This document shows positions 42,001 through 56,495 of a stretch of 64,000 nt of DNA, one piece after another (the stretch's first letter is position 1; every line of letters starts with the position of its first letter). This DNA is from Phycisphaerae bacterium. GTDB taxonomy: Bacteria > Planctomycetota > Phycisphaerae > UBA1845. The stretch is taken from NCBI GenBank assembly GCA_963666835.2, contig CAXXGO010000001.1, forward strand, positions 352,001 through 416,000, read 5' to 3'. A program made the position numbers and the translations under genes. The notes below the pieces were generated by a model. That model worked only from the letters and a program-made list of their open reading frames with translations, did no database searches and was not told the origin of the DNA.

Positions 42001-42783
42001 GCGGACAAGGGCGTGCGGTTTGTGGCGGTCAGCCAGAAGATGCGCACGGAGTCCACCGTTGACGAAGTCAAGGCCAAGCTCGACGAGTTCGGTTTCAAGG
42101 GCGAGGCTGCAATCAATCATACCAACTCGGTCGGTCGGGCATTCGGCGCCACCGGGTTCCCGACTATGGCCGTGATCGGCAAGGACGGGAAGCTTGGTTC
42201 GGTGAACGTCGGTAATATCGCGGATCTCGAAACCAAACTGGAGGCTCAGCTTGATGCCTTGATCGCCGGCCAGCCGATTCCGGAGAAGTTCGTCGGAAAA
42301 CCGCGAACAAGGGGCAGCAGGCAGCGCCCGGCTATGGAGTTAATAGGTAAGACGGCGCCGGCTTTCTCGGCCACGACTATGGACGGAAAGGCCGTGGGTG
42401 ATGCGGACTTCGCGAACCACCCGGCGACCGTGTTGAACTTCGTTGCTCCGAATTGTGGCTACTGCAAGAAAGCGCTTCCCAATGTTGAGAAGGTGCGGGC
42501 ATCGTACGAGCAGAAGGGCGTGCGTTTCGTCAACATGGCCCAGTCCATGCGTAAGGAGTATCCGGCAGACGAAGTGGTCAAGATCTTCACGGAAGCCGGC
42601 TCGAACCTGGAGCTGTCTTACGACCCCAAGAACGAAGTAGGCAAGAAGTTCAAAGCCACTAGTTTCCCCACGATGGTCGTTGTGGGCAAAGACGGGAAGG
42701 TCGCGGCCGTGAACATCGGAGCCAAGCCCGATCTGGAGACCCTGTTGAAGGGGCAGCTCGACAAGCTCATTGCGAACCAGTAG
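39088..42783 (+). CDS. Exported DUF1573/Ig-like protein with five tandem TlpA/redoxin-type thioredoxin domains
   Basis: Signal/TM; HDFG..ACGCT..IAPGESG (DUF1573-like); CGHC at 40441, 40942, 41443; CGYC at 41947, 42454; GVPS/GFPT/SFPT cis-Pro loops. Confidence 0.92.
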   Translation: MKTKSFVAAARVRWSRESRAFCALPIVLAVVGIVAASVVAAPSQTEKKAPDAVPVIKIDNPIHDFGTKWIGPMLDHTYTIKNEGTEALEIIKVRPACGCTVAGEYPKSIAPGESGKFPFTLNSKKLRGKYEKSITVTTNDPVTPELKLKLRGECKRYIDVLPTAANFGKVVDNEPKRKDIGIKNNTDDPLKLTLTKTEDGPFAFELVEKTAGKDFDVHVSMKPPYTPGTFRGTTTVLSNIESQKEITVRATARVPERLELQPSQITYDPNKFKDRGFSRSVRFVNYGNEPVQVVDVTTDDPDHINLAFKERTPGKAYTIQVDIPAGYSPPEGGREIVIKTDDTKQPAIVLPVTQVAARAAESLQAKAAEKAKAAEKGNDAEKPKATVANKDKAKPSEKKRTEPKRARRGRPAEEMVGQQVPSFEATTVVGEKLNAESFIGKVTVLDFFSKRCGHCMKQIPRLETVRQKYAAKGVRFVAIGAGGTDEELKAKTASLGFKGELVIDSAKKISPLFKVSGVPSMAIVGKAGIVEAVNVGNVGDLEERMAKQLDAMLAGKPVPEIDRAPSKAQEKGKNQPRPAEEMVGKVVPDFDATTVTGEKISSKSFTGQVTVLDFFSKRCGHCMKQIPRVEAMRQKYADKAVRFVAIGGGGTEDELKAKVAELGFKGDLIADISQKISPLFGVRGVPSMAIVGKTGKVEAVNVGNLRDLEDRMTSQIDAMLAGKPVPQIAETPPKAPDRGANKPRPAEEMVGKVVPDFDATTVTGEKISSKSFVGKVTVLDFFSKRCGHCMKQIPRVEAMRKKYAAKGVRFVAVGAGGTEDEIKAKIAELGFEGDLVADVSRKISPLFGVRGVPSMAIVGKSGKVEAVNVGNLRDLEDRMTKQLDAMLAGKPVPQVAENTPPPSPPTKEPTKAPTTELVGNPAPKFDLTTLEGEKLNNETVAGTVVVLDFFATNCGYCKKQIPRVEAIRQKYADKGVRFVAVSQKMRTESTVDEVKAKLDEFGFKGEAAINHTNSVGRAFGATGFPTMAVIGKDGKLGSVNVGNIADLETKLEAQLDALIAGQPIPEKFVGKPRTRGSRQRPAMELIGKTAPAFSATTMDGKAVGDADFANHPATVLNFVAPNCGYCKKALPNVEKVRASYEQKGVRFVNMAQSMRKEYPADEVVKIFTEAGSNLELSYDPKNEVGKKFKATSFPTMVVVGKDGKVAAVNIGAKPDLETLLKGQLDKLIANQ

Positions 42784-43030: not shown

Positions 43031-43079
43031 TTGACGATCTCCGACAGATGTAGTAGGTTGCCTACGACTGATGTAGTAG
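43031..43079 (+). promoter_or_regulatory. Promoter overlapped by tandem BlaI-type operator palindromes
   Basis: TTGACG-17 nt-TAGGTT; CTCCGACAGATGTAGTAG (43039-43056) and CTACGACTGATGTAGTAG (43062-43079). Confidence 0.8.
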
Positions 43080-43102: not shown

Positions 43103-43489
43103 ATGGCGAAACGTCAATACGATCTTGGAGACGCGGAGCTCGGGGTTCTCCGAGCGTTGTGGGATGTGGGGCCGGCCACGGTGCGCGACGTACTTGAACA
43201 CCTGCACGAACGTGGGCGGCGGGTGGCGTACACTACGGTGCAGACTTTGCTGACGCGGCTGGAACAGAAGCGTTACGTCGCGAGCGACAAGTCCGGTCTG
43301 GCGTTCGTCTATCGTTCGAAGGTCTCACGCGAACGCATCAGCCGGTCGCGGCTGAGTTCGCTGCTGACTCAGTTGTACGACGGCGCTGCGGGCCCGTTGG
43401 TGCTGCAACTTATTCGTACCGAACGACTAAAACCGGATGAGATCGAAGAACTGCAGAAACTGATCGAAGAACTCGATACTCGATCGTAA
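43103..43489 (+). CDS. BlaI/MecI/CopY-family repressor
   Basis: LGDAELGVLRALW..ATVRDV..AYTTVQTLLTRLEQK..Y; precedes the M56 gene. Confidence 0.93.
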   Translation: MAKRQYDLGDAELGVLRALWDVGPATVRDVLEHLHERGRRVAYTTVQTLLTRLEQKRYVASDKSGLAFVYRSKVSRERISRSRLSSLLTQLYDGAAGPLVLQLIRTERLKPDEIEELQKLIEELDTRS

Positions 43490-43522: not shown

Positions 43523-46500
43523 ATGTGGGAAGTATTTCCAACAGACGTATTGTGGCGAAGCGCGTTGGCGGTGATACCGCTGGCCGTGATTGTCGCCCTT
43601 GTCTGCCGTCGCCTGCCGGGCCGGCCGGCGTTGCGTCATAGCCTCTGGTTCATGGTGTTGCTCTGGCCGCTGATGGCCCCTGTTTTGCCAAGTCTGGACG
43701 TTCCCGGCGAGTTAGCCGCGCAGGTATTGCCGGATCCGGGGGGAACCGAGCGGGTTGCCGCGGTGACGCCTCTTGAAGAGCCAAGACCGGTCCCGCCGGC
43801 AGCGTTCGGGGGTTCGGGATCCGCGGCGAACGTAACTGGTGTTAAGTTGAGGACCGTCGAACCGGCGAGGACCGGGCCACATCGCACTTTGGTGCCTCGA
43901 AACGGGTTGACGACGGAATCGCATAGCGCAGCCTCCCGCCCAGAGCCGTGCTCGCCCTTTGAGCTCGCCCGGGCGACCGGCTTTGGCGGGGGGCTTCTTG
44001 AACAAGTTCAGCTTGCGGAACGCCGTCGCGGCATCAGGTCGCAGCACGATCGGGTCGACGAACGGTCGAGCGTCGGTTTGTTCGACAATCCAGCGGCGGC
44101 TTCTTTGGAGGTGCCGGCAGCGGCCGCCACGGCGCGGGACGGGACCGAGTTCGGCGAACCCGAAGGAGTCTGCCCATTCGAGGTGGGCCCCGAAGTTGAG
44201 CCCGAGCAGGCCTTCTGTTTGTTGATGATGCCGGATGGTGCGTTCCTGGAAAGCGAATCAGCCCAGAGCGCGGGGGCGCCGCCGAAGGTTGCGTTGAGTT
44301 TGCCGGCAGTGTCGGAGAACGCTGCGGAGGCTGAACCCGGCGGCGCGTGTCTTGAATGGGCGACGTGGCTCGCGGGCTTGGCGGCGATTCGTGACAGTGT
44401 CGGTAATCTGCCACCGATACCGGTGAAGATATGGTTGGCGGGGATCGTGCTCTTCGGGTTGGCGAAGGTTGCCGGCGTCATTCGGGCGCGCCGTCTGTTT
44501 GGTCGGGCGACCGTCGCTCCGGCGTCAGTGCGAATGACCGTATCTGCGGCGGCGGACAAGCTGGGTCTGCAGTCCGCTCCGGATACGTTCATGACTGACG
44601 AGCAGATCTCCCCGATGGTGTGGTGCGGGCGCCGGCGGCGTTTGCTGCTACCGCGGGCGTTGTGGGCGCAGTTCGACGATGCGGGCCGCGCGGCGATCGT
44701 GTGCCACGAGCTGGCTCATCTGCGCCGCCGGGACCATTTGGTTTGCTGGATAGAAACTCTGGTCGGCGGATTGTACTGGTGGCATCCCCTGGTGTGGTGG
44801 GTGCGCCGTCATCTACGGGCAGAGGCCGAGCTGGCGTGCGATGCCTGGGTCATCTGGTCCTTGCCGAACGGGCGACGGGCCTATGCCGAGGCGTTGCTGG
44901 CCACGAAGCAGTTTGTGGGAACGAATAGAAGTCCCCTGCCCGTTGGGGGTATTGGGGTGACGACCGGGCGAGCGGAGCGTTTTGGTAGGAGACTTACGAT
45001 GGTGATGACTCAGACGACAAGGCCGGGGCTCTCGTTCTCGGGTGTCGCGATTGTGGCAGCATTGGCGATGGTCGGTTGGATTGCCGTGCCGGCGCGATCC
45101 GGCCCGCCGACCGAGGAGCCGTCGGCGACCGCGGTGGCTTTGGAGACTCTGGCGATCGAACTGGCGGACAAAGGCGAGGACGTGCCTGCACTGCAAACCG
45201 TTCTTGTCGGGGATTCCGACCAGAAGAAGCTCAACAGGCGGATGAACGCCCTGGAAGCGAAACTGGATCGGTTGGCGAATCAGCTCGATCGCCTGGTGGG
45301 TGATCTTCCGGAAATCCCGCGAGTGCCGGTCGTTCCGGCCGTTCCCGCGGTTCCGGCCGTTCCCGCGGTTCCGCCTACCGCTTTGGGGACCGCCTTCCTT
45401 GGAGGCGAGACAATTGTCCAAGCCTACTCTCTTCCGGGCGAGAAACTCGAGAAACTGACGGCGCTTATGGTGCGCCCGGATGTGCCGATCCTCGTCAACC
45501 CGACCGAGGACGGCCTGGAAGTCCATGCGACCGCGGAGCAACATGCGATCTTCAAGCGGTTTGTGGAGATGATCCACCCGGAGAAGGAGAAGCGGAATGT
45601 CAAGGTGGCGCCGGGCAAGCTGGAGGCCTTGGCCGAGTTGATGATCCTCGATGACGTTCCGGTTCCGGTTCGGGCCGGCGAAGACCATATCATGGTTCAC
45701 ACCGATAGTCTGAACCAGTTAATCTTCCAGGACTTCGTAGACTTGATCGAGGAGCCGGGGAGTATCTCGGTTGCGTCGACGGTTCCGATCCAGTTGGGCG
45801 AGTTCTTCGTACACGGTGAGTCGTCGACCGGAGAGTACCAGGCAAAGAGCGACTGCAGTGGCAAGAAGAAAGCCAAAGCGGCCAAGAAAGCCAAGAAGGC
45901 TAAGAAAGCTAAGAAAGCTGAGAAGGCCAAGGGAACTAAGAAAGCCCGAAGATCCGAGCGTGTGGTTGTCGACCATGCCGGATGCGACGGTTGCGATCAC
46001 AAGAAGCACGGCGCTTGTAGCTCCTCGCACGCTGTTGCCCTCGAGCATTATGAGGCCGGAAAGCAGAGCCTTGCGGATCTGGCGAGCAGCGCGAATCTCG
46101 ACGAGCTGCTTAAGGTCACTTCCAAGTTAAGTGACGGAGCGTTCCACGGGGAGCTCAAAGTTCAGAGGAAAGCCCTCGAGACCCAGGCGCAGATGCTGGA
46201 AGCCCAGGCAATGGCGTTTATGGCCAAGGCTCGCAAACTCGTGCAGAAGGCCGAGACGGTGGAAGCCCGGGCCGACCAGCTCGAAGACCGGGCCGACCGC
46301 ATCGAAGACAAGGCCGACGATCTGAGGGGCAAGGCCGACGACGTGGCGGCATCAGAGCGCATTGCTCTTGTCACCGAGGCCGAAGCCCTGATGGCCCAGG
46401 CGAAGGAGATGGAACGGAAGGCCGGCGAACTCGAGACGAAAGCCGAGGAGATCGAGGATCTTGCCGACAGTCTGGAAGCCCAGGCCGAGGCGTTTGAGGA

Positions 46501-46576
46501 TGCCGCAGATACGATCCGCGATGCGGTGCGCCAGTTGGCCGAGGATGCCGCGCGGGTCTCGCTCGAGAGTCTGTAG
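43523..46576 (+). CDS. BlaR1-type M56 metallopeptidase signal transducer with large non-PBP extensions
   Basis: RHSLW; SPMVW; HELAHLRRRD; WWHPLVWW; ELACD; YAEAL; C-terminal coiled coil. Confidence 0.92.
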   Translation: MWEVFPTDVLWRSALAVIPLAVIVALVCRRLPGRPALRHSLWFMVLLWPLMAPVLPSLDVPGELAAQVLPDPGGTERVAAVTPLEEPRPVPPAAFGGSGSAANVTGVKLRTVEPARTGPHRTLVPRNGLTTESHSAASRPEPCSPFELARATGFGGGLLEQVQLAERRRGIRSQHDRVDERSSVGLFDNPAAASLEVPAAAATARDGTEFGEPEGVCPFEVGPEVEPEQAFCLLMMPDGAFLESESAQSAGAPPKVALSLPAVSENAAEAEPGGACLEWATWLAGLAAIRDSVGNLPPIPVKIWLAGIVLFGLAKVAGVIRARRLFGRATVAPASVRMTVSAAADKLGLQSAPDTFMTDEQISPMVWCGRRRRLLLPRALWAQFDDAGRAAIVCHELAHLRRRDHLVCWIETLVGGLYWWHPLVWWVRRHLRAEAELACDAWVIWSLPNGRRAYAEALLATKQFVGTNRSPLPVGGIGVTTGRAERFGRRLTMVMTQTTRPGLSFSGVAIVAALAMVGWIAVPARSGPPTEEPSATAVALETLAIELADKGEDVPALQTVLVGDSDQKKLNRRMNALEAKLDRLANQLDRLVGDLPEIPRVPVVPAVPAVPAVPAVPPTALGTAFLGGETIVQAYSLPGEKLEKLTALMVRPDVPILVNPTEDGLEVHATAEQHAIFKRFVEMIHPEKEKRNVKVAPGKLEALAELMILDDVPVPVRAGEDHIMVHTDSLNQLIFQDFVDLIEEPGSISVASTVPIQLGEFFVHGESSTGEYQAKSDCSGKKKAKAAKKAKKAKKAKKAEKAKGTKKARRSERVVVDHAGCDGCDHKKHGACSSSHAVALEHYEAGKQSLADLASSANLDELLKVTSKLSDGAFHGELKVQRKALETQAQMLEAQAMAFMAKARKLVQKAETVEARADQLEDRADRIEDKADDLRGKADDVAASERIALVTEAEALMAQAKEMERKAGELETKAEEIEDLADSLEAQAEAFEDAADTIRDAVRQLAEDAARVSLESL

Positions 46577-46816
46577 CACAATCGGGAGTTTCAGCGAGGG
46601 AGCTTGGCGGCGGGCGGCGGTAACGGCCGTGCCGTCGCCGGGCTTCCCCGAACGAATTCCCGCGCTTTGCCTGCACTGACCGGCGGGCCGATTTCATAAC
46701 GGCTCGTAAGGGCCTTTTCTGCCACCGGAATCTGCGAGGTCGGCAGGGGGGCAGGCACGGTCACCTTCGTGGAAAGGCCGTAGTGCCATTCCACAGTCAC
46801 GTTCCATCAGGAGGGA

Positions 46817-49800
46817 GTGTTCAACGTGTTACGCACCGGGCCTTGGTTATTAGGATTGGCAGTCGCGGTGGGGGTCGGATCGACGGTAGCCGCGTCGGGT
46901 CCGGATCAGGACCGCGCGGCGGTTCCGCGGGACTACTACAGTGCTAACGGGCTGCTGAATCGCGGGCTCTATGACCTGGCCGAGACGGAGTATCGGCGGT
47001 TTCTCAGCGAGCATGAAGACCACGACAAGGCCGCCACGGCGCGGTACGGCCTATCGGTGTGTCTCTATCGGCTTGGCCGGCATGAAGATGCCACGGTCGA
47101 GCTGGAGCGTCTGATCGCGCTGCCGGAGCCGCCGTTTGCCGCGGAAGTGCTGACCATGTTGGGGCAGTGCCGACTCGCCACAGGGCGGCATGCGGCTGCG
47201 GTGGAGGCGTTCGAGCAAGTCATCCGCGACCATCTTAAGCACGATCTGGTGGATGATGCGGTGGCCGGCGCGGCCGAAGCACTCTACCTGAGCGGCCGCT
47301 TTGATGAGGCAATCTCCAAATGCCGACTGCTGACTTCGCGCTGGCCTGACAGCCCCTTGCGGGAGCGGACGGAGTTTTTCCGAGGTCTGGCCGCGATGGG
47401 CAACGGGGACTTCGCCGCGGGGGCCGAGTGTTTCGAGGGCCTGATCTCGGAATTCCCCGACGGTCCCTTTATGGATCAGGCTTCACTTCTGTTGGCGCAG
47501 TGCCATCATCACAACAACGCAGTCGAAAACGCCTTGCGCCAGTACCGACAAGTGCTGTCTCGCTCCGGTACTCGGTTTTTTGCGGAGGCCTTGTACGGGC
47601 TTGGGGTCCTGGCGTTGCAGCAGGACCGGGCGAAGGAGGCCGGGGTTCTGTTCGACGAGTTGCTTAATCGGCACGCGGACAGCGTTCACGCCTCGTCGGC
47701 GCGGTTCTATCGCGGGCGGGCGTGGTATGAACAGGGCGAATTCGATAAAGCACTCAGCTCGTTGGAGAAGTGCGCCGAGGGTGTCAAAGACGCGACTCTG
47801 GCGGACGATGTGGCGTATTGGATGGCGAAGTGTCGGCTTAGGCAAGGGGCGTTTCCCGATGCCGCCGAGCGATTGACTGCCGCGATTGCCGCTCATCCCC
47901 AGAGCGATCTACTCCCTGAGATGTATTACGATCGAGCGATCGCACTGGTCCAAGCCGGTGAGCCCGAAGCCGGGGTGGAGGCCTTGGAGGAGTACCGAAG
48001 ACGCTATGCCGACCATTCCATGGACCCGGATGCTCTGCACCTTTTGGGCGCGACTCGGCATGAGCAGGGGCGATATGACGACAGTGCGGCATACTGTCGC
48101 GCGTTCATCGAGCAATACCCGAAGCACGAACTGGTTGCGGAGGTCGTTTTCCTCGCCGCGGAGAACGACATGCTCGCCGGCCGTTTCACGGAAGCCGCGC
48201 GAGGCTTCGATGAGTTCTTGAAGCGTTATCCCGGGGATGCCCAGGTCGTCAAGGCGGAATACCGGCTCGGTATGGCCTTGTATAACCTGCAACGCTTTGA
48301 CGAGGCCGAGGCCCGGCTTAGAAAGGTCGTTCAAAACACGGGGGCCGATGAGGCGTTTCGTCCCGGCCTGTTGGCATTGGGGGATATTCATTTTCAGCGC
48401 AGCGAGTGGGAGCAAGCTGAGCGACTTCTGAGCGATTATCTCTCTGGTGAGACGGTGGGCGGTTCCGCAGATGACGCATTACTGAAGCTGGGTTTAGCCC
48501 TGCAGAGGCAGGAAAAGCACTCCGAGGCGATCGCGGTCTTCAGCCGCCTGATCGACGGCAGTCCGGACGGGCCGCACCGCCTGCAAGCGGTGTTCGAGCG
48601 TGGGCAGGCGTTGGCTGCTCTGAAGCGCTTTGATGAGGCCCGCAAAGCGTTCGAACAGGTACTGGCCGAGGGCGGCGAGTCGCGGTTCAAGCCGTATGCT
48701 CTGAACCACTTGGGTTCGGTGGCGATGCGGGACGGCGATTTCACGGCCGCGGCGGGGTTCTTCGAGAAGGTGAACGAATCGGCGGGAACACCCGTGGACG
48801 AGGGTGAGTCTCTGTTTAATCGTGGGCAGGCGTTGTTGGCCGGCGGGAGCTTCAAGGAGGCGGAGAGCGTTTTCGGGGAATTGCTCGAACGGTTTCCCAA
48901 GCACGCCCGAGCGGGGTCCGCGACCGCTCAACTGGCGATAGCGCGTTCCCGGCAAGACCGCTGCCCCGCCGCCCTGGAGAGTATCGCCCGTATCGAGGGT
49001 GAGTCCGGAGCTAAGCTCAGCAATACCCTGCGCAGAGCGGTTCAATACGAAAAGGCCTGGTGCCTCCGTAAGGTCGGTCGCTCGGATGAGGCGGCGGATA
49101 CGTACCGAGCGCTGCTGGAGGGCAAAGGCAGCGACGACGAGCGCCGTCACGCGCTGCTCGATTTGGCCGGTATTGAGTTCGAGGCGGTGCGGTACGAGGT
49201 GGCGGCCGGCCTCCTTCGGCAGCTTGATGAGGCGATCACCGGGGCTTCGTTTACCGAGCCGGCGGACATGCGGGAACAGCGCACGTACCAGTTGGCGGTA
49301 TGCGAGTTCGAACTCAAGCGATATTCAGAGGCGGCCAAGCTGTTCGAGGAGTTCGTCGGGCTCTTTCCCGCGAGTCGTTTGCTGGCTTCGGCGAGCTTCT
49401 TCTGCGGTGAGGCCTACAGTGCCCTCGGCGACTTCAACGCGGCCGTTCCGCACTTGAGCAGAGTAGTGGAGGGCTTTCCGTCGGATCCGGTATATCCGGC
49501 GAGTATTTTGCGTCTCGGCGAGGGATTGGCGGCCTTGCAGCGCTGGCCCCGCTGTGAGCAGGTCTTCAGCGAGTATCTCAGCCGTTTCGGTGACGCCGAG
49601 CGCTGGTTCCAGGCTCAGTTCGGCGTGGGCTGGGCTCGGGAGAACCAGGGCCGGTACGATGAAGCGATCCAGGCCTATGAAGCGGTGGTGGCCCGCCATC
49701 AGGGCCCGACGGCCGCGCGCGCCCAATTCCAGATCGGTGAGTGCCTCTTCGCCAAGAAGCAGTACGACGAGGCGGTGCGTGCTCTTTTGAAGGTGGACAT

Positions 49801-49993
49801 TCTCTATGCCTATCCGGAGTGGAGCGCGGCGGCTCTGTACGAAGCGGGCCGGTGTTTCGAACAGCTTTCCAAGCCGGCCGAGGCGCGAGTGCAGTTCAAG
49901 ACCGTGGCGGAGAAACACTCGGAAACGCGCTGGGCGGCAATGGCGGTCAGCAAGCTGAAGGAAGTGCCGCCGGTGTCACTGCCGGGGCATTAG
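46817..49993 (+). CDS. Giant periplasmic TPR protein (CpoB/BamD-like repeats)
   Basis: Signal peptide, then many TPR-like helical repeats ending (Y/F/H)P.S; VDILYAYPEWSAAALYEAG. Confidence 0.9.
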   Translation: MFNVLRTGPWLLGLAVAVGVGSTVAASGPDQDRAAVPRDYYSANGLLNRGLYDLAETEYRRFLSEHEDHDKAATARYGLSVCLYRLGRHEDATVELERLIALPEPPFAAEVLTMLGQCRLATGRHAAAVEAFEQVIRDHLKHDLVDDAVAGAAEALYLSGRFDEAISKCRLLTSRWPDSPLRERTEFFRGLAAMGNGDFAAGAECFEGLISEFPDGPFMDQASLLLAQCHHHNNAVENALRQYRQVLSRSGTRFFAEALYGLGVLALQQDRAKEAGVLFDELLNRHADSVHASSARFYRGRAWYEQGEFDKALSSLEKCAEGVKDATLADDVAYWMAKCRLRQGAFPDAAERLTAAIAAHPQSDLLPEMYYDRAIALVQAGEPEAGVEALEEYRRRYADHSMDPDALHLLGATRHEQGRYDDSAAYCRAFIEQYPKHELVAEVVFLAAENDMLAGRFTEAARGFDEFLKRYPGDAQVVKAEYRLGMALYNLQRFDEAEARLRKVVQNTGADEAFRPGLLALGDIHFQRSEWEQAERLLSDYLSGETVGGSADDALLKLGLALQRQEKHSEAIAVFSRLIDGSPDGPHRLQAVFERGQALAALKRFDEARKAFEQVLAEGGESRFKPYALNHLGSVAMRDGDFTAAAGFFEKVNESAGTPVDEGESLFNRGQALLAGGSFKEAESVFGELLERFPKHARAGSATAQLAIARSRQDRCPAALESIARIEGESGAKLSNTLRRAVQYEKAWCLRKVGRSDEAADTYRALLEGKGSDDERRHALLDLAGIEFEAVRYEVAAGLLRQLDEAITGASFTEPADMREQRTYQLAVCEFELKRYSEAAKLFEEFVGLFPASRLLASASFFCGEAYSALGDFNAAVPHLSRVVEGFPSDPVYPASILRLGEGLAALQRWPRCEQVFSEYLSRFGDAERWFQAQFGVGWARENQGRYDEAIQAYEAVVARHQGPTAARAQFQIGECLFAKKQYDEAVRALLKVDILYAYPEWSAAALYEAGRCFEQLSKPAEARVQFKTVAEKHSETRWAAMAVSKLKEVPPVSLPGH

Positions 49994-50042
49994 ACGAATT
50001 GCGGGCGGGCAACCGATCCGAATACGACAGGAGCTTGGATAC

Positions 50043-50864
50043 GTGAGTGTGTTGATGGCAGTGTCGGGGGTAGTGGTCTTGGGGCAGGTTACTGGGGGAC
50101 CGGTCGAGGGCGCGGGGGCGTCCGTGACCGGGCAGATTCAATCGGTCTGGGATTTCGTCGTCAAGGGCGGGCCGATGATGATCCCGATTGGGATCCTGTC
50201 GCTCGTGGCGCTGACCGTGATCATTGAGCGGATGGTGAGCCTGCGCCGCCGCCAGGTGGTACCCGACGGCTTCTTGCCCGGCCTGCAGGCGGTGCTGGAA
50301 GATGGTCTGGACGACCGCACCGCCGCCCTTGAGTATTGTCAGAACGATGGCAGTCCGGTTGCGAGTATCTTCGCCGTGGGGATCAAGAGACTCGGCGAGC
50401 CGGTGGAGCTGCTCGAGAAGCACGTTCAGGAAGCCGGAGAGCGCGAGGTTCGCAAACTCCGTAAGTTTCTGCGCTCGCTGGCCGTGGTGGCGTCCATCGC
50501 CCCGTTGATGGGGCTATTGGGTACGATCTTCGGGATGATCAAAGCGTTTCAGACCGTGGCAACTTCGGGCGAAGCGCTGGGCAAAGCGGAACTGCTCGCC
50601 AAAGGGATCTACGAAGCGATGATCACGACGGCCGCGGGGCTGTTGGTGGCCATCCCGACTCTGATTGCCTATCACTGGATTTCCGCCAAGATCGAACGGC
50701 TTGTGACGGAGATGGACCAGATGACGTGCGAGTTCATCGAGGAGTATGCGGGAACCGAACCTGCTTCGCAGTCGCGAGCGTCACGTTTGCGCCCGGTCAG
50801 CGAGTCGGTCGGCACCGCTGAGGCAGTGGCGGATGACGCCAGGGCCAACGCGGCTTCGGCTTGA
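50043..50864 (+). CDS. exbB: MotA/TolQ/ExbB proton channel protein
   Basis: GGPMMIPI; APLMGLLGTIFGMIKAF; GIYEAMITTAAGLLVAIP. Confidence 0.93.
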   Translation: MSVLMAVSGVVVLGQVTGGPVEGAGASVTGQIQSVWDFVVKGGPMMIPIGILSLVALTVIIERMVSLRRRQVVPDGFLPGLQAVLEDGLDDRTAALEYCQNDGSPVASIFAVGIKRLGEPVELLEKHVQEAGEREVRKLRKFLRSLAVVASIAPLMGLLGTIFGMIKAFQTVATSGEALGKAELLAKGIYEAMITTAAGLLVAIPTLIAYHWISAKIERLVTEMDQMTCEFIEEYAGTEPASQSRASRLRPVSESVGTAEAVADDARANAASA

Positions 50865-50931
50865 GGGGATAATGTGTGTCGCGATACGTCTTGCAGGATG
50901 AACCACGGGGGTGCGGCTTTGGTTATGAGAG

Positions 50932-51165
50932 TTCGAGTCCCCCAACGCTAAAGCGATGGGCCACCCGTTTGAACGATAAACCGGAGGGGGCCGGTCTTGG
51001 ACGTGGGTGGGCTGAATCCGCCGGTGGTTCGAGTCCCCCACCTCTAAAGAGGTGGGCCACCCATTTGACGAGGCGGGCCACCCATTTGACGAGGCGGGCC
51101 ACTCATCTGGGGCGGGCCACTCATTTGGAGAGCAGCACGCATCTGAAGAGGGCCGCCCATCTAAT
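50932..51165. repeat. REP hairpins plus ~21-bp stutter repeat between exbB and exbD
   Basis: TTCGAGTCCCCCA..TAAAG..TGGGCCACCC x2, then repeated GGGCCAC(C/T)CAT(T/C)TG units. Confidence 0.8.
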
Positions 51166-51192
51166 GGACTTTTCCGGAAACGGCGCTGAGGC

Positions 51193-51606
51193 ATGTTGAT
51201 ATCTGCAGAAGAACAGAAGCCGACGGTCTCGATCGAGCTGACGCCGATGATCGACATGGTCTTTTTGCTGCTGATCTTCTTCCTGGTGGCCACGACGTTT
51301 CGCCAGGAAGAAAGGGAGATGCAGATCGCTCTGCCCTTTGCCAGTTCGACGGCTCCGATCAGTACGATGCTGCGCGAGCTGATCGTCAACGTTGATGCCG
51401 ACGGGGCGATTATCGTCGGCGGCCGGCGGATCGATGAGGACGCCCTGCAGAAGATCATCACCGATGCCGTAGCCGGTAACCCGGAGCAGAAGGTCACCGT
51501 GCGCGGAGATCGCGGAACGGCTTATGCCAATGTGGTTCGAGTGCTGGATGTCTGCAAGGTCGGTGGTATTCAAGAACCCTACCTCGACACGGTGTTGCCC
51601 GAATGA
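51193..51606 (+). CDS. exbD: ExbD/TolR biopolymer transport protein
   Basis: IELTPMIDMVFLLLIFFLVAT; VTVRGD..Y..VVRVLD. Confidence 0.95.
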   Translation: MLISAEEQKPTVSIELTPMIDMVFLLLIFFLVATTFRQEEREMQIALPFASSTAPISTMLRELIVNVDADGAIIVGGRRIDEDALQKIITDAVAGNPEQKVTVRGDRGTAYANVVRVLDVCKVGGIQEPYLDTVLPE

Positions 51607-54600
51607 GTGGTGCGTCTTCCGCAAGCCCGCCGCCCGGTGAGAAGGCCGCTCCGAAGCGGTCCTGGTGTCGCCGCTTGATGATAGGCGCGGCGATACTCGT
51701 GGGGATCGACGCGGCTACGGTGGCGGCGGTGCTTTGGCCGCGGACCATGGTGTTCTATACGGATGCCGACACGATTCGCGTACCGGCGCAGGTCGCGGCG
51801 CTACGCGAGGTTCTCTGGCAGCCGCCCGTGCAGCTTCCTGATCTGATCAATACCGAATCCGACGATTACGAGCCCCGGCTAAGTGCCGATGGAATGACAC
51901 TATACTTCGTGCGCGGTAAGGCCGGCGATAATGCCGACGTGTACCGTTGCACCCGCACGCCGGACGGTTGGACCGAGCCCGTTCCCGTGGTGGAATTGAA
52001 CACGGAGTATGACGAGCTGGGGGCGGAGCCTTCGGCGGACGGGCGGTCCATTTACTTCTACAGTAATCGCCCCGGGGGGCAAGGCGGCTACGATCTCTGG
52101 GCGATCCATCGCGGGCTCGACGGAGAGTCGGGATTCTCAGCTCCGGTGAACCTGGGGCCGAGAGTCAACTCGGAGTACAACGACTACGGTCCGGCGCTTA
52201 CGGCCGACGGCAAAACACTGTACTTCGCTTCGAACCGACCGCAGCCGCGCGACGCCGACCAGCCCGATCCGGACGCCTGGCCGGGGACAATTCGCGAGGA
52301 CCTGTACCACCGCACCTATGACTTGTTCATGGCACCGCTGACCGAGCAGGGCCCGGGAGACGCGCGACCTTTGGCGGCGTTGAACACGCCGTACAACGAG
52401 GGCGCCCCCGCGGTCAGCCCGGTGGGGGACTTCGTGTACTTTGCCTCCGATCGCCCCGGCGGCGAAGGGGCTTTTGATGTCTATCGATCCCGCCGGCTCC
52501 GCGGCGTCCACCAGCCGGCGGACAACTTGGGCGACGTCGTCAACACGGCGGCCAACGAGCTGGACCCGGGCATGACTCTCGGAGGATTCGCTCTCTATTT
52601 CAGTTCCGACCGGCCGGCGCAGCGCAGCGATCCGGAAAAGCCCAACCCGTATCATGTGTTTCAGACGACCTCCCGCGAGGTCTTCACGGAGACCGAAACC
52701 CGGCAGGTGTCCATCGACTGGGCGGCACTGTGGTCCGAAGTGGGGCCGAACCTGCTGTGGGCGTTGTTGGCGTTGCTGTTGCTTCTGCTCCTGCTAGTGG
52801 TCTTCAGAGACCTTCAGCGTCGCCGGCTCAGCTTGTTGGCCCGGTGTTTGCTCGCCTCCATTGCGGCCCATCTGCTGTTAATGTTGCTGTTCAACGTGTG
52901 GGGCGTGACCGTCTCGCTTGCCCGAGAGTTGAAAGGCCGCGGGCGCATTCAGATTGCGCTCGCTGCCCCGGTGAAAGGCAATGACATTTCCACCCAGATC
53001 CGCGGGGAGTTCACCGAGGTTGACACTCCGCCTCCCGTTCAACTGGAAAGTGAGCGAGCGGCGAGCGAGATTGCTGTAGAACCTGTTGCCGAACCGGCGA
53101 ATCCCGGCTTTGACCATCAACCCGTGCGGTTCGAGCATCGTTTGCTGGTCGACAGGCGAGTTGTAGAGGCTGAACCCGAGTCCCGCCCGGATGTTCCGGA
53201 TTCCACCCCGGATTCGACGCGCACCGAACGCAAAGAGGCTTTGGACTTGGCGGTGCCGTTCGAGGAACGCCGGGTAGATGCGGCGGAGGAAGCTTCTTCG
53301 TTTTCCCCGGATCCCGTTGCCGATTCTGCCGGCGCTCGCATGGCGATCGACCGGGTCGAGCGGGATACGACCGCGGCGGACCAACCGATCGAGCTTCCGC
53401 CGGATCGGCTTTCGGAATACACCCGTTTGCCGCGACGCAGTCTGGCCGAGTTTGCGCCGAATCGACCTCCACGCGTTGACGTTCCCTCGCCGGTTCCTTC
53501 GGTTGGTGGAACGGCGGTTTGTCAGGTTTCGGAAGCTGAGTTTGGATTAGCTTTGCCGAAGGATGACCGCCGGATCAGTGATTCGGAGAACGGTTCGGCA
53601 CCCGCGCCGGCTCCGGTGGCCGAGGTGCTGAGCGAGCGCCTGGCCATCGACCGGATCGAGCGAGTTCCGGCCGTGGCGGACCAACCCATCGAGCTTCCAC
53701 CGGATCGGCTTTCGGAAGATACGCGTTTGCCGCGGCATAGCCTCGCGGAGTTCGCGCCGAATCGTCCTGTTGTGGTCGACGTACCGTCGCCGAATCCGTC
53801 GGTCGACGAGGCGGCGGCTTGGCAAGCCCCGGAAGCGCAGCTTGGATTGGCCCTCCCGCACGACGAGCGCAGGGTTCAGGAGGCGGAAGATGCCTCCATA
53901 ACCCGGCCCGTTCCTGTTGCCGACGCGACGAGCGCGCGCTTGGCGGTGGATTCCGTAGATGGCGTTTCGGAGGTGTCCGATTACCCGGTAGAACTTGTTC
54001 CAGACCGGGTGGTTGACGATCTTCGCATGCCACCGCGTAGCTTGGCTGCGCGTACGCCGAACCGAGCCTCCAACGTCGAGGTTTCTTCTCCGACTCTATT
54101 GGCCGATGCCACAACGGTATCATCACCGCCGACCTTCGAGTTGGATCTGGCGCTGCCGCAGGCTCAGCAACCCGGGGTCGATCAGGAGCACAGCCAACTG
54201 CCCGCGGCCGAGATGCCCGAATCGGTTCGGTCGAAGTTGTCCCCGCGTACGGTGACCAGTCCGGACGTCCCCGTTGTTTCTACTATGAAACCCGCAAGCC
54301 CGGCGACTGCGGGAAACGCGACCAGCCTGGCCGATGCAAGCCGTCCACGGGAGAGCGATTTGCCTGGAGCCGCGAATATGACCGCGCCGATCAGAGCCGA
54401 CGGTCTTGATACCCCCTACGTTCCGAATGCCGATCTGGCTCTGCCGACGGTCGAGGAGATTCCCGCGGATGTGCGGAATGAGCCCGCGGTCCTTCCCCAA
54501 GGGACGGTCGTTGACGGGCTCCGCAAGACGCTGCCGCTGATCATGGATGTTGACACACCCGAGTCACCACGGTTATTCGATCCGATCCCGCACCTGCCGT

Positions 54601-56495
54601 TTTCGGCGCAACTGGCGCAGCACGGACTGCCGCTACGGAAGCCGCGAACGGAAGGGGCGGCGGTGGCCGTGCCGGGTCTTGCTGTTTCAGCTCCCCGCGA
54701 TCACGATTCCCTGACGCCGAGTCAGGCGATTCCGAATCTGCGTCTCCCCGGCGAGGTGGTTCTGCCGGACGATACGTACGCCCAGCGGGCCCGGGCCCAG
54801 CGGTTGGCTGTGGTTAAGGGAATGGGCGGTAGCGAGGCCACCGAAGAGGCGGTGCGTTTGGCTCTGAAGTGGCTGGCGGCACACCAGAGCGATGACGGGC
54901 GGTGGGACGGCCGCGACTTCGACGATAATTGCGGAGAGTGCGGCGGCCAGACGGATATCGAAATCGATACGGCTCTTACCGGACTGGCTCTGCTTTGTTT
55001 CCTGGCGGCGGATCATACGAATGTCAAGGAGGGTCCATACCGCGCGAACGTCGAGCGCGGTTTACAGTGGCTACTCCGGCGACAAGCGCCCAACGGCGAC
55101 TTCCGCGGTGAGGAGACCATGTACAGCCAGGGCATCGCCACGATCGCGCTGGCGGAAGCGTACGGCATGACCCGTGATTCTCGTCTGGCGGAACCGCTCC
55201 GCAAAGCCGTTCGTTTCATCGACCAGGCGCGCGATCCATCCAGCGGTGTGTGGCGCTACGAGCCCGGTCAGCCCGGTGACACCTCCGTGTTGGGATGGCA
55301 GATCATGGCGTTCAAGAGTGCCCGCGAAGCCGGCCTCGAGGTGCCGATGGATCCGTTCGTTGCCGCGCGCGATTGGCTGGATGATGTCAGCCCGTCGTCA
55401 CATCCCGGGCTGTATGCATATCAACCGGGACAGCGCGTCACGGTTACGATGACGGCCGAAGGTTTGTTCATACAACAATTGCTCGGCCGGCGGCGTAGCG
55501 AGCCGCGTATGCAAGAGTCGGTTGCGGTTGTCCTGGATCACCTGCCGGGTTCGGACGACGATTTCAACACGTATTTTTGGTACTACGGTACGTTGGCTCT
55601 GTTTCATCATCAGGGCGAGGCCTGGCGGACCTGGAACGAGGCCCTTACCGAACAGCTTCTCACGCGGCAACGCCGGGACGGTTCGGCGGCGGGAAGCTGG
55701 AATCCGGAGGGCAAGTGGGCCAAGCTCGGTGGGCGCATATACCAGACGACCCTCTGCACGCTGATGTTGGAGGTGTACTATCGCTACTTACCCCTCTTCC
55801 TACAAGAGCGACCGTTAGAGGCGATCGGGACGATAACGGGGCGGGTGACCCACGCCGAGACCGACGCTCCGATTGCCGGCGCGCGGGTCCGACTGGATCT
55901 GCCCGACAGTGCTCCGATCGAGGTCGTAACCGATACGCTCGGGCGGTATTCCCTCTTCCCGCCGGAAGTGCCAACGTTCTTTGCGCTGTCGGCGTCGGCC
56001 GAAGGCTATCTGCCGGATTCGAAAAACGTAGCCACCGCCATGGTGAAAGGTGCCGAGTTGGCTCTTGACTTCTCCTTGGAAGAAGAGACCCAGAGCATCG
56101 TGGCGTTGGAGTCCGAGCCCGAGGTTCATCACCTCGGTGACGACCAGTTTGACGGCCGGATCAACAGCCAGTTCCAACGAAAGGCCGAAGGCTCTCGATA
56201 TACGGGTTCTTTCACGCTCTCGGCCAGGCAGCTTCCGCCGCACTACAACACGGCGGAGATCACCATATTGGTCAAAGGGGTACAGCTTTCGAGTCGGATC
56301 AGGGTTAACGGGCGGACTATCCCGACCCGGCTGGACTGGTCGCCGCGCGATGGCAGCTTCGGTGAGTTCACCGCTTCCCTCAATCCGGACTTACTGCGCG
56401 CGGGTGACAACACCTTCGAGATCCTTTCCAGCTCCACCGGGTCCGATATCGACGACTTCGAGTTCGTCAACATTCAGATCCACCTCTCGCCGTAA
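51603..56495 (+). CDS. Multidomain membrane protein: PD40 (TolB-like) propeller, two TMs including SxxxH, Pro-rich stalk, prenyltransferase-like barrel, beta-sandwich domains
   Basis: Five P.(L)SADG..LYF.S.R-type repeats; LLASIAAHLLL; ~100-aa stalk repeats; ALKWLAAHQSDDGRW, GVWRY, GSW; GTITGRV..PIAGA carboxypeptidase-regulatory-like domain; ATGA overlap with exbD. Confidence 0.88.
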   Translation: MSGASSASPPPGEKAAPKRSWCRRLMIGAAILVGIDAATVAAVLWPRTMVFYTDADTIRVPAQVAALREVLWQPPVQLPDLINTESDDYEPRLSADGMTLYFVRGKAGDNADVYRCTRTPDGWTEPVPVVELNTEYDELGAEPSADGRSIYFYSNRPGGQGGYDLWAIHRGLDGESGFSAPVNLGPRVNSEYNDYGPALTADGKTLYFASNRPQPRDADQPDPDAWPGTIREDLYHRTYDLFMAPLTEQGPGDARPLAALNTPYNEGAPAVSPVGDFVYFASDRPGGEGAFDVYRSRRLRGVHQPADNLGDVVNTAANELDPGMTLGGFALYFSSDRPAQRSDPEKPNPYHVFQTTSREVFTETETRQVSIDWAALWSEVGPNLLWALLALLLLLLLLVVFRDLQRRRLSLLARCLLASIAAHLLLMLLFNVWGVTVSLARELKGRGRIQIALAAPVKGNDISTQIRGEFTEVDTPPPVQLESERAASEIAVEPVAEPANPGFDHQPVRFEHRLLVDRRVVEAEPESRPDVPDSTPDSTRTERKEALDLAVPFEERRVDAAEEASSFSPDPVADSAGARMAIDRVERDTTAADQPIELPPDRLSEYTRLPRRSLAEFAPNRPPRVDVPSPVPSVGGTAVCQVSEAEFGLALPKDDRRISDSENGSAPAPAPVAEVLSERLAIDRIERVPAVADQPIELPPDRLSEDTRLPRHSLAEFAPNRPVVVDVPSPNPSVDEAAAWQAPEAQLGLALPHDERRVQEAEDASITRPVPVADATSARLAVDSVDGVSEVSDYPVELVPDRVVDDLRMPPRSLAARTPNRASNVEVSSPTLLADATTVSSPPTFELDLALPQAQQPGVDQEHSQLPAAEMPESVRSKLSPRTVTSPDVPVVSTMKPASPATAGNATSLADASRPRESDLPGAANMTAPIRADGLDTPYVPNADLALPTVEEIPADVRNEPAVLPQGTVVDGLRKTLPLIMDVDTPESPRLFDPIPHLPFSAQLAQHGLPLRKPRTEGAAVAVPGLAVSAPRDHDSLTPSQAIPNLRLPGEVVLPDDTYAQRARAQRLAVVKGMGGSEATEEAVRLALKWLAAHQSDDGRWDGRDFDDNCGECGGQTDIEIDTALTGLALLCFLAADHTNVKEGPYRANVERGLQWLLRRQAPNGDFRGEETMYSQGIATIALAEAYGMTRDSRLAEPLRKAVRFIDQARDPSSGVWRYEPGQPGDTSVLGWQIMAFKSAREAGLEVPMDPFVAARDWLDDVSPSSHPGLYAYQPGQRVTVTMTAEGLFIQQLLGRRRSEPRMQESVAVVLDHLPGSDDDFNTYFWYYGTLALFHHQGEAWRTWNEALTEQLLTRQRRDGSAAGSWNPEGKWAKLGGRIYQTTLCTLMLEVYYRYLPLFLQERPLEAIGTITGRVTHAETDAPIAGARVRLDLPDSAPIEVVTDTLGRYSLFPPEVPTFFALSASAEGYLPDSKNVATAMVKGAELALDFSLEEETQSIVALESEPEVHHLGDDQFDGRINSQFQRKAEGSRYTGSFTLSARQLPPHYNTAEITILVKGVQLSSRIRVNGRTIPTRLDWSPRDGSFGEFTASLNPDLLRAGDNTFEILSSSTGSDIDDFEFVNIQIHLSP

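Follow-up and report, generated by a model that had tools for sequence, protein, structure and literature searches.

What does an ExbB–ExbD proton motor drive when the gene coupled to it encodes a protein with neither a TonB nor a TolA C-terminal domain? This question is raised by a 64,000-nucleotide (nt) stretch of the genome of a Phycisphaerae bacterium (GenBank assembly GCA_963666835.2, contig CAXXGO010000001.1, positions 352,001–416,000), hereafter the window, in whose coordinates the genes below are given, all on the plus strand. In this window, a tetratricopeptide-repeat (TPR) gene, exbB and exbD are followed by a gene (51603–56495) that starts 4 nt inside the end of exbD and encodes a transducer fusion protein of 1,630 amino acids (aa). 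To our knowledge, no protein other than TonB and TolA is a proven partner of an ExbBD/TolQR-type motor. We hold with good confidence that the fusion protein is a force transducer. With moderate confidence, we explain the locus as six genes, these four and an upstream blaI–blaR-like pair, that together form an inducible, accessory Ton/Tol-type machine pulling a stalk whose tip grips envelope glycan or glycoprotein.

A search with the full-length fusion protein (E ≤ 0.001) returned 189 homologues of 896–2,853 aa, and the top 120 went into an alignment; the nearest named relatives come from Phycisphaerae and other Planctomycetota assemblies, and the carrier records seen derive from metagenomes. 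The analysis covers this set and left out 31 propeller-only matches from Bacteroidota and kin (L027–L057). Contigs from two studies span the region. The second-study run covers the fusion gene as overlapping pieces, the main ones of which differ from it by substitutions only, including Asp36Gly in the first transmembrane segment (TM1). The domain layout proposed by an earlier, sequence-only reading, an N-terminal anchor, five PD40 repeats, a pair of transmembrane helices with a Ser and a His, a stalk of about 600 aa, a barrel and beta-sandwiches, was borne out by open reading frame (ORF) calls, Pfam matches and AlphaFold2 models. Hydrophobic segments lie at aa 24–46, 378–407 and 408–440. With a 53-row alignment, AlphaFold2 modelled the N-terminal part as five propeller blades with helices at 20–43, 373–404 and 411–444 (mean predicted local distance difference test, pLDDT, 80.9). 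Pfam matches the fusion to PD40 (E 1e-28), weakly to SQHop_cyclase_C (2e-6) and to CarboxypepD_reg at aa 1410–1492. TM1 (aa 24–46, 51672–51740) is a predicted N-in anchor, and 117 of the 120 aligned homologues have a hydrophobic N-terminal segment. Asp36 (51708–51710), which is Gly in the strain from the other study, lies in the middle of this helix.

The evidence for force transduction centres on the second and third helices, which together with a basic loop span 52746–52901. TM3 carries a C-x3-S-x3-H motif formed by C415, S419 (codon at 52857) and H423 (codon at 52869). These three residues and L411 are invariant in all 119 aligned homologues that have the segment, while positions 420–422 vary. 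With the propeller and helices as query, 149 representatives were retrieved that could be compared here, and 148 of them carry Ser-x3-His. Among 53 fusion genes adjacent to exbD, one of which is cut before the helix, the His is kept in 52/52 and the Ser position is Ser in 42 and Ala in 10. The loop between TM2 and TM3 averages 4.4 Lys/Arg against 0.7 Asp/Glu. Basic loops are cytoplasmic by the positive-inside rule, so this loop is expected to be cytoplasmic and the propeller, stalk and tip periplasmic. When all ORFs of the genome were scanned for Ser-x3-His within a hydrophobic helix, three matched and only two of them precede a polar stretch: the fusion protein and a 324-aa von Willebrand factor A (vWA) protein encoded beside the other motor of the genome, an ExbB–ExbD–ExbD cluster. 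The full SHLS motif (Leu at +7 and Ser at +11 from the His) is not kept; the first of these positions is F430 in 76/120 and Leu in 31/120, and position 434 is Glu, Gln, Gly or Lys. Fifteen residues past the TM3 helix lies a candidate motor box (D-box), the strand RIQIALA (aa 448–454, 52944–52964), with alternating hydrophobic positions and Val or Ile at 451 in 119/120.

The motor genes themselves appear intact. The ExbB/TolQ-type subunit (50043–50864; PF01618, E 4e-31) scores best with TolQ and keeps S53, T161, T196 and P205 in 52/52 rows, the last three aligning with the threonines of the TolQ pore and the proline of its TM3. The Trp that lies four residues after the Ser in ExbB TM1 is not kept (Leu 35/52, Val 11/52). 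The ExbD/TolR-type subunit (51193–51606; PF02472, E 4e-28) is encoded by a single copy and has Asp21 in 53/53 aligned rows; one related locus, L141, has two tolR-like genes instead of one. These conserved ExbB and ExbD residues coincide with motor residues named in the consulted portions of PMC12905483. Because the proton-path residues are intact, the His is invariant and the stalk is predicted to be periplasmic, a TonB/TolA-like transducer is well supported.

Gene order is equally regular. The succession TPR–exbB–exbD–fusion is complete in 19 of 23 planctomycete-type loci, the exceptions being three cut by contig ends and the aberrant L021. A phylum sample of 38 regions, one of them duplicating an earlier locus, has it complete in 32; of the others, two are cut, three hold unrelated propellers and one shows no motor gene within the region. 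Among 20 class loci, one a duplicate, 18 have the full succession and two are cut. At L021:8315–11725 the TPR protein is fused in frame to a portion of the propeller and exbB and exbD are gone, through deletion or mis-assembly. With the query used, the fusion turned up in 32 of the 151 genomes of the class and 40 of the 401 of the phylum; the cassette is patchy and probably accessory. The non-coding spacer between exbB and exbD (50865–51192), which holds short repeats dispersed through the genome in about 100 BLAST pieces, is an insertion outside the conserved unit: the gap measures 329 nt in the window and 4–97 nt in 11 relatives. Together, the invariant His helix, the periplasmic stalk, the intact motor residues and the strict gene order support the earlier proposal of a proton-motive-force-driven envelope machine without a TonB or TolA C-domain.

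The first gene of the cassette encodes a 1,058-aa protein (46817–49993) built of TPR repeats by Pfam and NCBIfam, with a signal-peptide-like N-terminus. In 17 aligned orthologues the N-terminus is hydrophobic by inspection and the last ~150 aa are the most conserved. It is likely a periplasmic scaffold. It had been likened to CpoB, a comparison that is not supported: the protein is four times the length of CpoB and falls below the NCBIfam CpoB cut-off (127.5 versus 383 bits), and it passes the YbgF model cut-off only through the sum of 13 repeats.

The propeller (aa 53–362, 51759–52688), predicted to be periplasmic, is five-bladed and PD40-type. By sequence it is nearest to the PorE model (E 1e-32, the best NCBIfam match of the fusion) and also matches the TolB profile (E 5e-7); a search of the PDB with a single propeller sequence gave no significant match. 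Its top fold neighbours are five-bladed glycosidases (Z reaching 20.5, at 5–16% identity), and its comparison with TolB gives Z 17.7 (root-mean-square deviation, rmsd, 3.4; 213 residues aligned). Since it has five blades, lacks the TolB N-terminal domain and is no closer in fold to TolB than to glycosidases, the propeller is not TolB. Of the suggestion that a TolB-like part had been fused to a TolA-like part, the PD40-type repeats therefore stand, and the TolB identity does not: there is no room for the TolB alpha/beta domain and a helix closes the propeller at each end. In the distant members L103, L107, L111, L124, L147 and L148 a second toroid is inserted between propeller blades.

Between the membrane and the tip runs a Pro/acidic stalk of 586 aa (aa 470–1055, 53010–54767; 14% Pro, 16.6% Asp/Glu). 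The sequence-only reading had not remarked on its internal order. Three clear 100-aa repeats occupy aa 551–850 (53253–54152), with units at 551, 651 and 751 that are 43–61% identical, and the period is exactly 100 residues (lag-100 autocorrelation ~9 standard deviations over other lags). Across 117 homologues, the distance from the His to the toroid clusters near 350, 470, 570, 665, 765 and 895 (best period 103). A profile of the repeat recognised just 31 of 267 stalks, so the repeats are clear in the window protein and in the length statistics and faint in most sequences.

AlphaFold2 modelled aa 1056–1630 as a helical toroid and, C-terminal to it, two beta-sandwiches (mean pLDDT 91.5), all three of which proved optional. 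The squalene-cyclase-like (alpha/alpha)6 toroid (54774–55802) superimposes on squalene-hopene cyclase 2sqc (Z 26.3, rmsd 2.9, 283 aligned) and also matches sugar epimerases and GH76 proteins (Z 21–24). It bears QPGDTS at 1223–1228, the GDTS of which aligns weakly with the cyclase DDTA. The position of the catalytic DxDD Asp is Gly in 118/120, the sole DxDD of the toroid (1105) is not conserved (Asp in 22/120 and 26/120 at two positions), and the acids E1185 (120/120) and D1226 (118/120) are fully or nearly invariant. A CGECGG sequence considered as a thioester was rejected: the CGEQ motif is absent, and the sequence is a CxxC (114/120) that is missing from most of the distant members. A carboxypeptidase-regulatory-like immunoglobulin (Ig) sandwich (aa 1407–1497, 55821–56093; PF13620, E 1.5e-8) travels together with the C-terminal beta-sandwich (56097–56492), which has invariant HHxG, NxSxFQ-like and DxDDxE motifs. 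Matches of the latter to carbohydrate-binding-module-like families were weak (PF14683 in 4 of 17 members, best E 0.008), and a PDB search with its profile gave no significant match. The top Foldseek match of the C-terminal model was a rhamnogalacturonan lyase (E 1.3e-9, no aligned range given), which presumably concerns the two sandwiches. Pfam and NCBIfam gave no TonB_C or TolA C-domain match in the fusion, and no vWA domain occurs in a tip in the sets examined.

A census of tips in the 150 best representatives from the propeller-plus-helices query counted 67 with Ig and sandwich only, 38 with toroid–Ig–sandwich, 30 with toroid only and 3 with Ig–sandwich–toroid; the remainder comprised 11 fragments ending inside the stalk and 1 unrelated protein. 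No complete member of the family lacked a tip, all 11 tip-less rows stopping within the stalk. The earlier statement that the tip is a barrel consequently does not extend to the family, in which 67 of 138 tip-bearing representatives have no barrel, 30 have the toroid alone and 41 have both. A FastTree phylogeny of the propeller–helix region was built from 131 rows, after 7 toroid-only rows that may be cut, 11 fragments and 1 unrelated row had been set aside; 55 of its 128 inner branches are weak. On this tree toroid presence changed 28 times, at least 8 of them forced by well-supported branches. Toroid labels are more clustered than shuffled ones (mean 44) yet not of single origin, and distant members beyond the close family carry the toroid only. 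The tips are interchangeable and likely non-catalytic modules, and as either tip suffices, both may grip the same type of target. At L025:9848–13975 the tip has two tandem Ig-plus-sandwich pairs. Two stand-alone toroid proteins of the source genome (L002:7039–8097 and L003:7463–8530), 27% identical to the tip, lie in vWA/BatA/MoxR-type clusters.

Upstream of the cassette lie two genes that the sequence-only reading did not mention. One encodes a 128-aa BlaI/MecI/CopY-family repressor (43103–43489; PF03965, E 8e-32) and the other a 1,017-aa BlaR1-like M56 membrane protease (43523–46576; PF05569, E 2e-29) with HELAH at 395, a motif kept in 13/13 orthologues, and four hydrophobic segments. In BlaI–BlaR1 systems a repressor is paired with an M56 zinc protease, and tandem dyad operators lie over a sigma-70 promoter. 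Here, a predicted sigma-70 promoter of the TTGAC-17 nt-TAG form (43031–43079) has its -35 element TTGACG at 43031–43036 and, after a 17-nt spacer, its -10 element TAGGTT at 43054–43059; it is overlapped by two BlaI-type operator dyads (43040–43056 and 43063–43079). The known BlaI/CopY dyad pattern matched 13 of 13 blaI upstream regions and 22 of 2,400 random windows. A refined pattern was found before blaI in 6 of 7 held-out loci (a variant in L134) and in 0 of 1,140 background windows. A generic promoter and terminator scan yielded nothing beyond chance, and the blaI promoter was absent from its list. The protease gave no Pfam match to a penicillin-binding or beta-lactam sensor domain and scored 66.5 bits against the 400-bit cut-off of the BlaR1 model. 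Its C-terminal part (45400–46576), a possible sensor, has two short repeats with a conserved GKL-x-AL-x2-LM-x3-DVP motif, a Lys/Ala tract, clustered Cys/His residues and what is predicted to be a long coiled coil.

Of 19 informative loci, 14 have the pair upstream of the cassette, as do most of the loci titled Phycisphaerae. Among ten loci that share the window's own order it is adjacent in seven (one duplicate); of the others, L131 has the pair one gene away, L130 has blaR one large gene away and L135 is without it. Operator boxes were not found before the TPR gene in the window or in 16 relatives, and among nine own-order loci only L135 has them; with no box at that position, control in the window would run by read-through. 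In genome G491, blaI (72% identical) has boxes of its own and is found on a different contig from the cassette, where two further boxes precede the TPR gene by 160 and 140 nt; this split arrangement argues that the regulatory link between blaI and the cassette survives separation. Judged from these sequence comparisons, the functional unit takes in the upstream blaI and BlaR1-like M56 genes with a conserved operator, and by analogy the operon is likely switched on by an envelope-sensing repressor/protease pair. A third BlaI-box-like site (score 19.9) on contig C1 at 1354742 (minus strand) marks a possible further regulon member. Just upstream of the blaI promoter, 39088–42783 encodes a 1,231-aa protein with Ig-like DUF1573 domains and five thioredoxin-like (AhpC/TSA) CxxC domains, which was not seen in related cassette loci.

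We then considered the genome around the cassette. The second motor locus (L001:9604–13602; contig C1, about 1261600–1265600, minus strand) encodes the 324-aa vWA protein with its Ser-x3-His, a 398-aa protein, ExbB, two ExbD proteins and TPR proteins, and is of the vWA-transducer kind reported in PMC12204202. No TonB_C match was obtained in the source genome, which is 92% complete, while controls matched. The earlier remark that neither Pal nor a TonB-dependent receptor is encoded in the window holds for the nine window genes scanned, and does not extend to the genome: at L126:8492–15631 (contig C6, 1108587–1115600) three plugged TonB-dependent receptors are encoded in tandem, accompanied by a periplasmic-binding-like gene. 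TonB_C occurs in 78 of 151 class genomes; 11 of 32 cassette genomes carry both and 21 of 32 have no TonB_C match, so the cassette is not simply a replacement for TonB. Two OmpA-domain genes (contig C6, 219269–219586 and 2352983–2353285) are present besides one adjoining a motA-like gene.

The components allow us to propose how the machine could work. An ExbB/ExbD proton motor, of 5:2 stoichiometry if Ton and Tol biology is a guide, would dock the Ser-x3-His helix; by analogy, the docking site for Ser and His would be ExbB TM1 (S53), and the ExbD dimer would capture the RIQIAL strand so that force passes to the stalk. By the topology rules, propeller, stalk and tips would face the periplasm. 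The M56 protease may sense an envelope signal and inactivate BlaI, derepressing the operon, as in BlaI–BlaR1 systems. The weakest steps are suggested by fold: the tip may grip peptidoglycan or a glycan linked to the outer membrane, the membrane-bound propeller may serve as a near docking site, the 1,058-aa TPR solenoid may guide the arm, and the machine may re-tension or repair the envelope. Propeller, toroid and sandwiches all have carbohydrate-active fold neighbours. That the target is envelope maintenance seems to us about half as probable as the transducer role itself.

Several observations weigh against this explanation. Three membrane helices are atypical for a transducer, and the candidate motor-box strand is disordered in the model (pLDDT < 50), though its hydrophobic pattern is conserved. 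The stalk, at about 300–880 aa, far exceeds domain II of TolA (110–335) or TonB (40–245), lengths given in the consulted parts of PMC12204202. The top fold match of the toroid is squalene cyclase and not a glycan protein, and fold likeness does not show function. No outer-membrane, peptidoglycan-binding, Pal or tolB gene recurred beside the cassette among the 99 of 149 selected flanking ORFs that were scanned. Upstream, blaI and blaR are missing in 5 of 19 informative loci and in all 38 phylum-sample regions, and a weak terminator-like hairpin (46701–46714), of a kind overall no more frequent than chance, lies between blaR and the TPR gene.

Other explanations assign the same parts to other tasks. 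A fuller version of the envelope role, which we regard as doubtful, is a stress-induced periplasmic winch new to the Ton/Tol family: the motor would reel in a repeat-built arm, its length tuned in 100-residue steps to the wide planctomycete periplasm, and two heads, unrelated and interchangeable, would grip glycans and draw the wall or outer membrane inwards, with the propeller taking the load and without Pal, TolB or a TonB-dependent receptor. The pull could instead serve feeding, with glycan chains held by the tip, drawn into the periplasm and trimmed by propeller or toroid. Fold comparisons speak for this: the closest propeller folds are five-bladed glycosidases (Z 20.5), Foldseek ranks rhamnogalacturonan lyase best for the C-terminal model, and the toroid resembles sugar epimerases and GH76 (Z 21–23) and keeps E1185 and D1226. 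We nevertheless find it unlikely, as the flanking ORFs scanned hold no conserved glycosidase, porin or sugar transporter, the propeller is PD40-type with 5–16% identity to glycosidases, and the regulator is BlaI/M56 and not of a sugar type. We judge it very improbable that the toroid, tethered on its stalk, is catalytically active as a terpene cyclase or prenyltransferase, with the motor genes serving lipid traffic. Squalene-hopene cyclases do come top by sequence (monodomain ones included, E 2e-17) and by fold (Z 25–26), but in the weak local alignment the catalytic Asp is replaced by Gly in 118/120, the lone DxDD is not conserved, and the toroid is missing in 67 of 138 members and stands more than 600 residues from the membrane helix.

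Two further alternatives, to each of which we give a low probability, cast the cassette as a stand-in for a known system. In one, a TolB-like propeller, a TolA-like arm and a CpoB-like TPR protein would constitute a fused Tol–Pal replacement that, in a phylum lacking Pal, stabilises the outer membrane at division; the PD40–TolB match (E 5e-7), the YbgF cut-off passed by the TPR protein, the best score of ExbB with TolQ and the report in the supplement of PMC12204202, as far as consulted, of no pal in Planctomycetes all lean this way. The patchy spread (with the query used, only 32/151 genomes of the class and 40/401 of the phylum) makes it unlikely; a five-bladed propeller fixed to the inner membrane could not shuttle as soluble TolB does, the 1,058-aa TPR protein is under the CpoB cut-off, and repressor control suggests an accessory role. 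In the other, the fusion protein would replace TonB in energising the TonB-dependent receptors of the genome. The source genome has no TonB_C match despite three plugged receptors, 21 of 32 cassette genomes have no TonB_C match, and the Ig domain is of a type implicated in receptor–TonB contact in Bacteroides in the consulted parts of PMC12204202. Against this stand the 11 of 32 cassette genomes that have TonB_C, the lack of a receptor gene adjoining any cassette in the flanking ORFs scanned, the 92% completeness of the genome, the vWA-headed arm as an equal candidate, and the need for two unrelated tip folds to bind a TonB box. We favour the inducible, accessory pulling machine set out above.

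If the predicted arm pulls like TonB or TolA, the cassette would be a further kind of envelope machine. In this family the working end of the arm is a freely exchanged module (toroid, Ig plus sandwich, or both in either order), the arm length shifts in fixed steps, and the machine is probably under a BlaI/M56 switch. It thus offers handles that are missing from the vWA-headed family: blaI control, natural tip variants, and natural length variants that could relate stalk length to force transfer. The findings bear on how planctomycetes, reported to be without Pal, manage an outer membrane and an enlarged periplasm, although a cassette that is accessory and patchy is unlikely to be the phylum-wide answer.

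Finally, comparison with known systems places the machine among the Ton and Tol relatives. With TonB–ExbB–ExbD and TolA–TolQ–TolR, as described in the consulted portions of PMC12905483, it shares the Ser-x3-His helix, a candidate box, a Pro-rich linker and the motor Asp, Thr, Thr, Pro and Ser; unlike them, it has no TonB_C or TolA C-domain, keeps neither the last two SHLS positions nor the ExbB TM1 Trp, and lies beside no receptor, tolB or pal gene. TolB shares the PD40-type repeats but is six-bladed and soluble with an N-terminal alpha/beta domain, whereas the propeller here has five blades and is helix-anchored at both ends; CpoB (~260 aa, a coiled coil and short TPR) is a quarter as long as the TPR protein. 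TPR, a PD40 propeller and a carboxypeptidase-regulatory domain, all found across the cassette, also occur in PorE of type IX secretion (PMC12204202 and PMC12773672, in the parts consulted), yet PorE is an outer-membrane lipoprotein with an OmpA-like peptidoglycan-binding end, while the fusion is inner-membrane anchored, has no OmpA domain and scores 113 versus 600 bits. Class II terpene cyclases (squalene-hopene cyclase, monodomain 8PAJ/8PAK and MstE; PMC12324236, in the portions consulted) share the (alpha/alpha)6 toroid and QW-type repeats; here, the catalytic DxDD/DxD acid is missing at the aligned position and the toroid is predicted to be periplasmic, stalk-borne and dispensable. The regulators have the repressor, HExxH M56 protease and dyad operators over their own promoter in common with BlaI–BlaR1 and MecI–MecR1, but lack a penicillin-binding sensor domain and a beta-lactamase gene, and the genes regulated would be an envelope motor operon.

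The closest precedent is the set of vWA-headed transducers that Planctomycetota–Verrucomicrobiota–Chlamydiota (PVC) bacteria encode after TPR, tolQ-like and tolR-like genes, proposed without a function (PMC12204202; Williams-Jones et al. 2025). As far as its consulted parts describe them, they share with our cassette the TPR, tolQ-like and tolR-like genes, a conserved His helix, a motor box (a candidate one in ours), a Pro-rich linker and a C-terminal domain that is not TonB. Our cassette differs in having only one exbD, in the three helices and the N-terminal propeller of five blades of its fusion protein, in its probable BlaI/M56 control, in a stalk of 300–880 aa that changes in 100-aa steps compared with about 100 aa, and in a tip made of toroid and/or Ig plus sandwich. 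The words 'squalene', 'prenyl' and 'toroid' occur 0 times in the text and text supplement of PMC12204202, and no account of this architecture was found in the literature searched, which lay outside subscription journals and the supplement figures of that paper. The general design is already in print for vWA-headed arms, and the propeller–toroid/sandwich architecture with its probable BlaI control is a variation on it.

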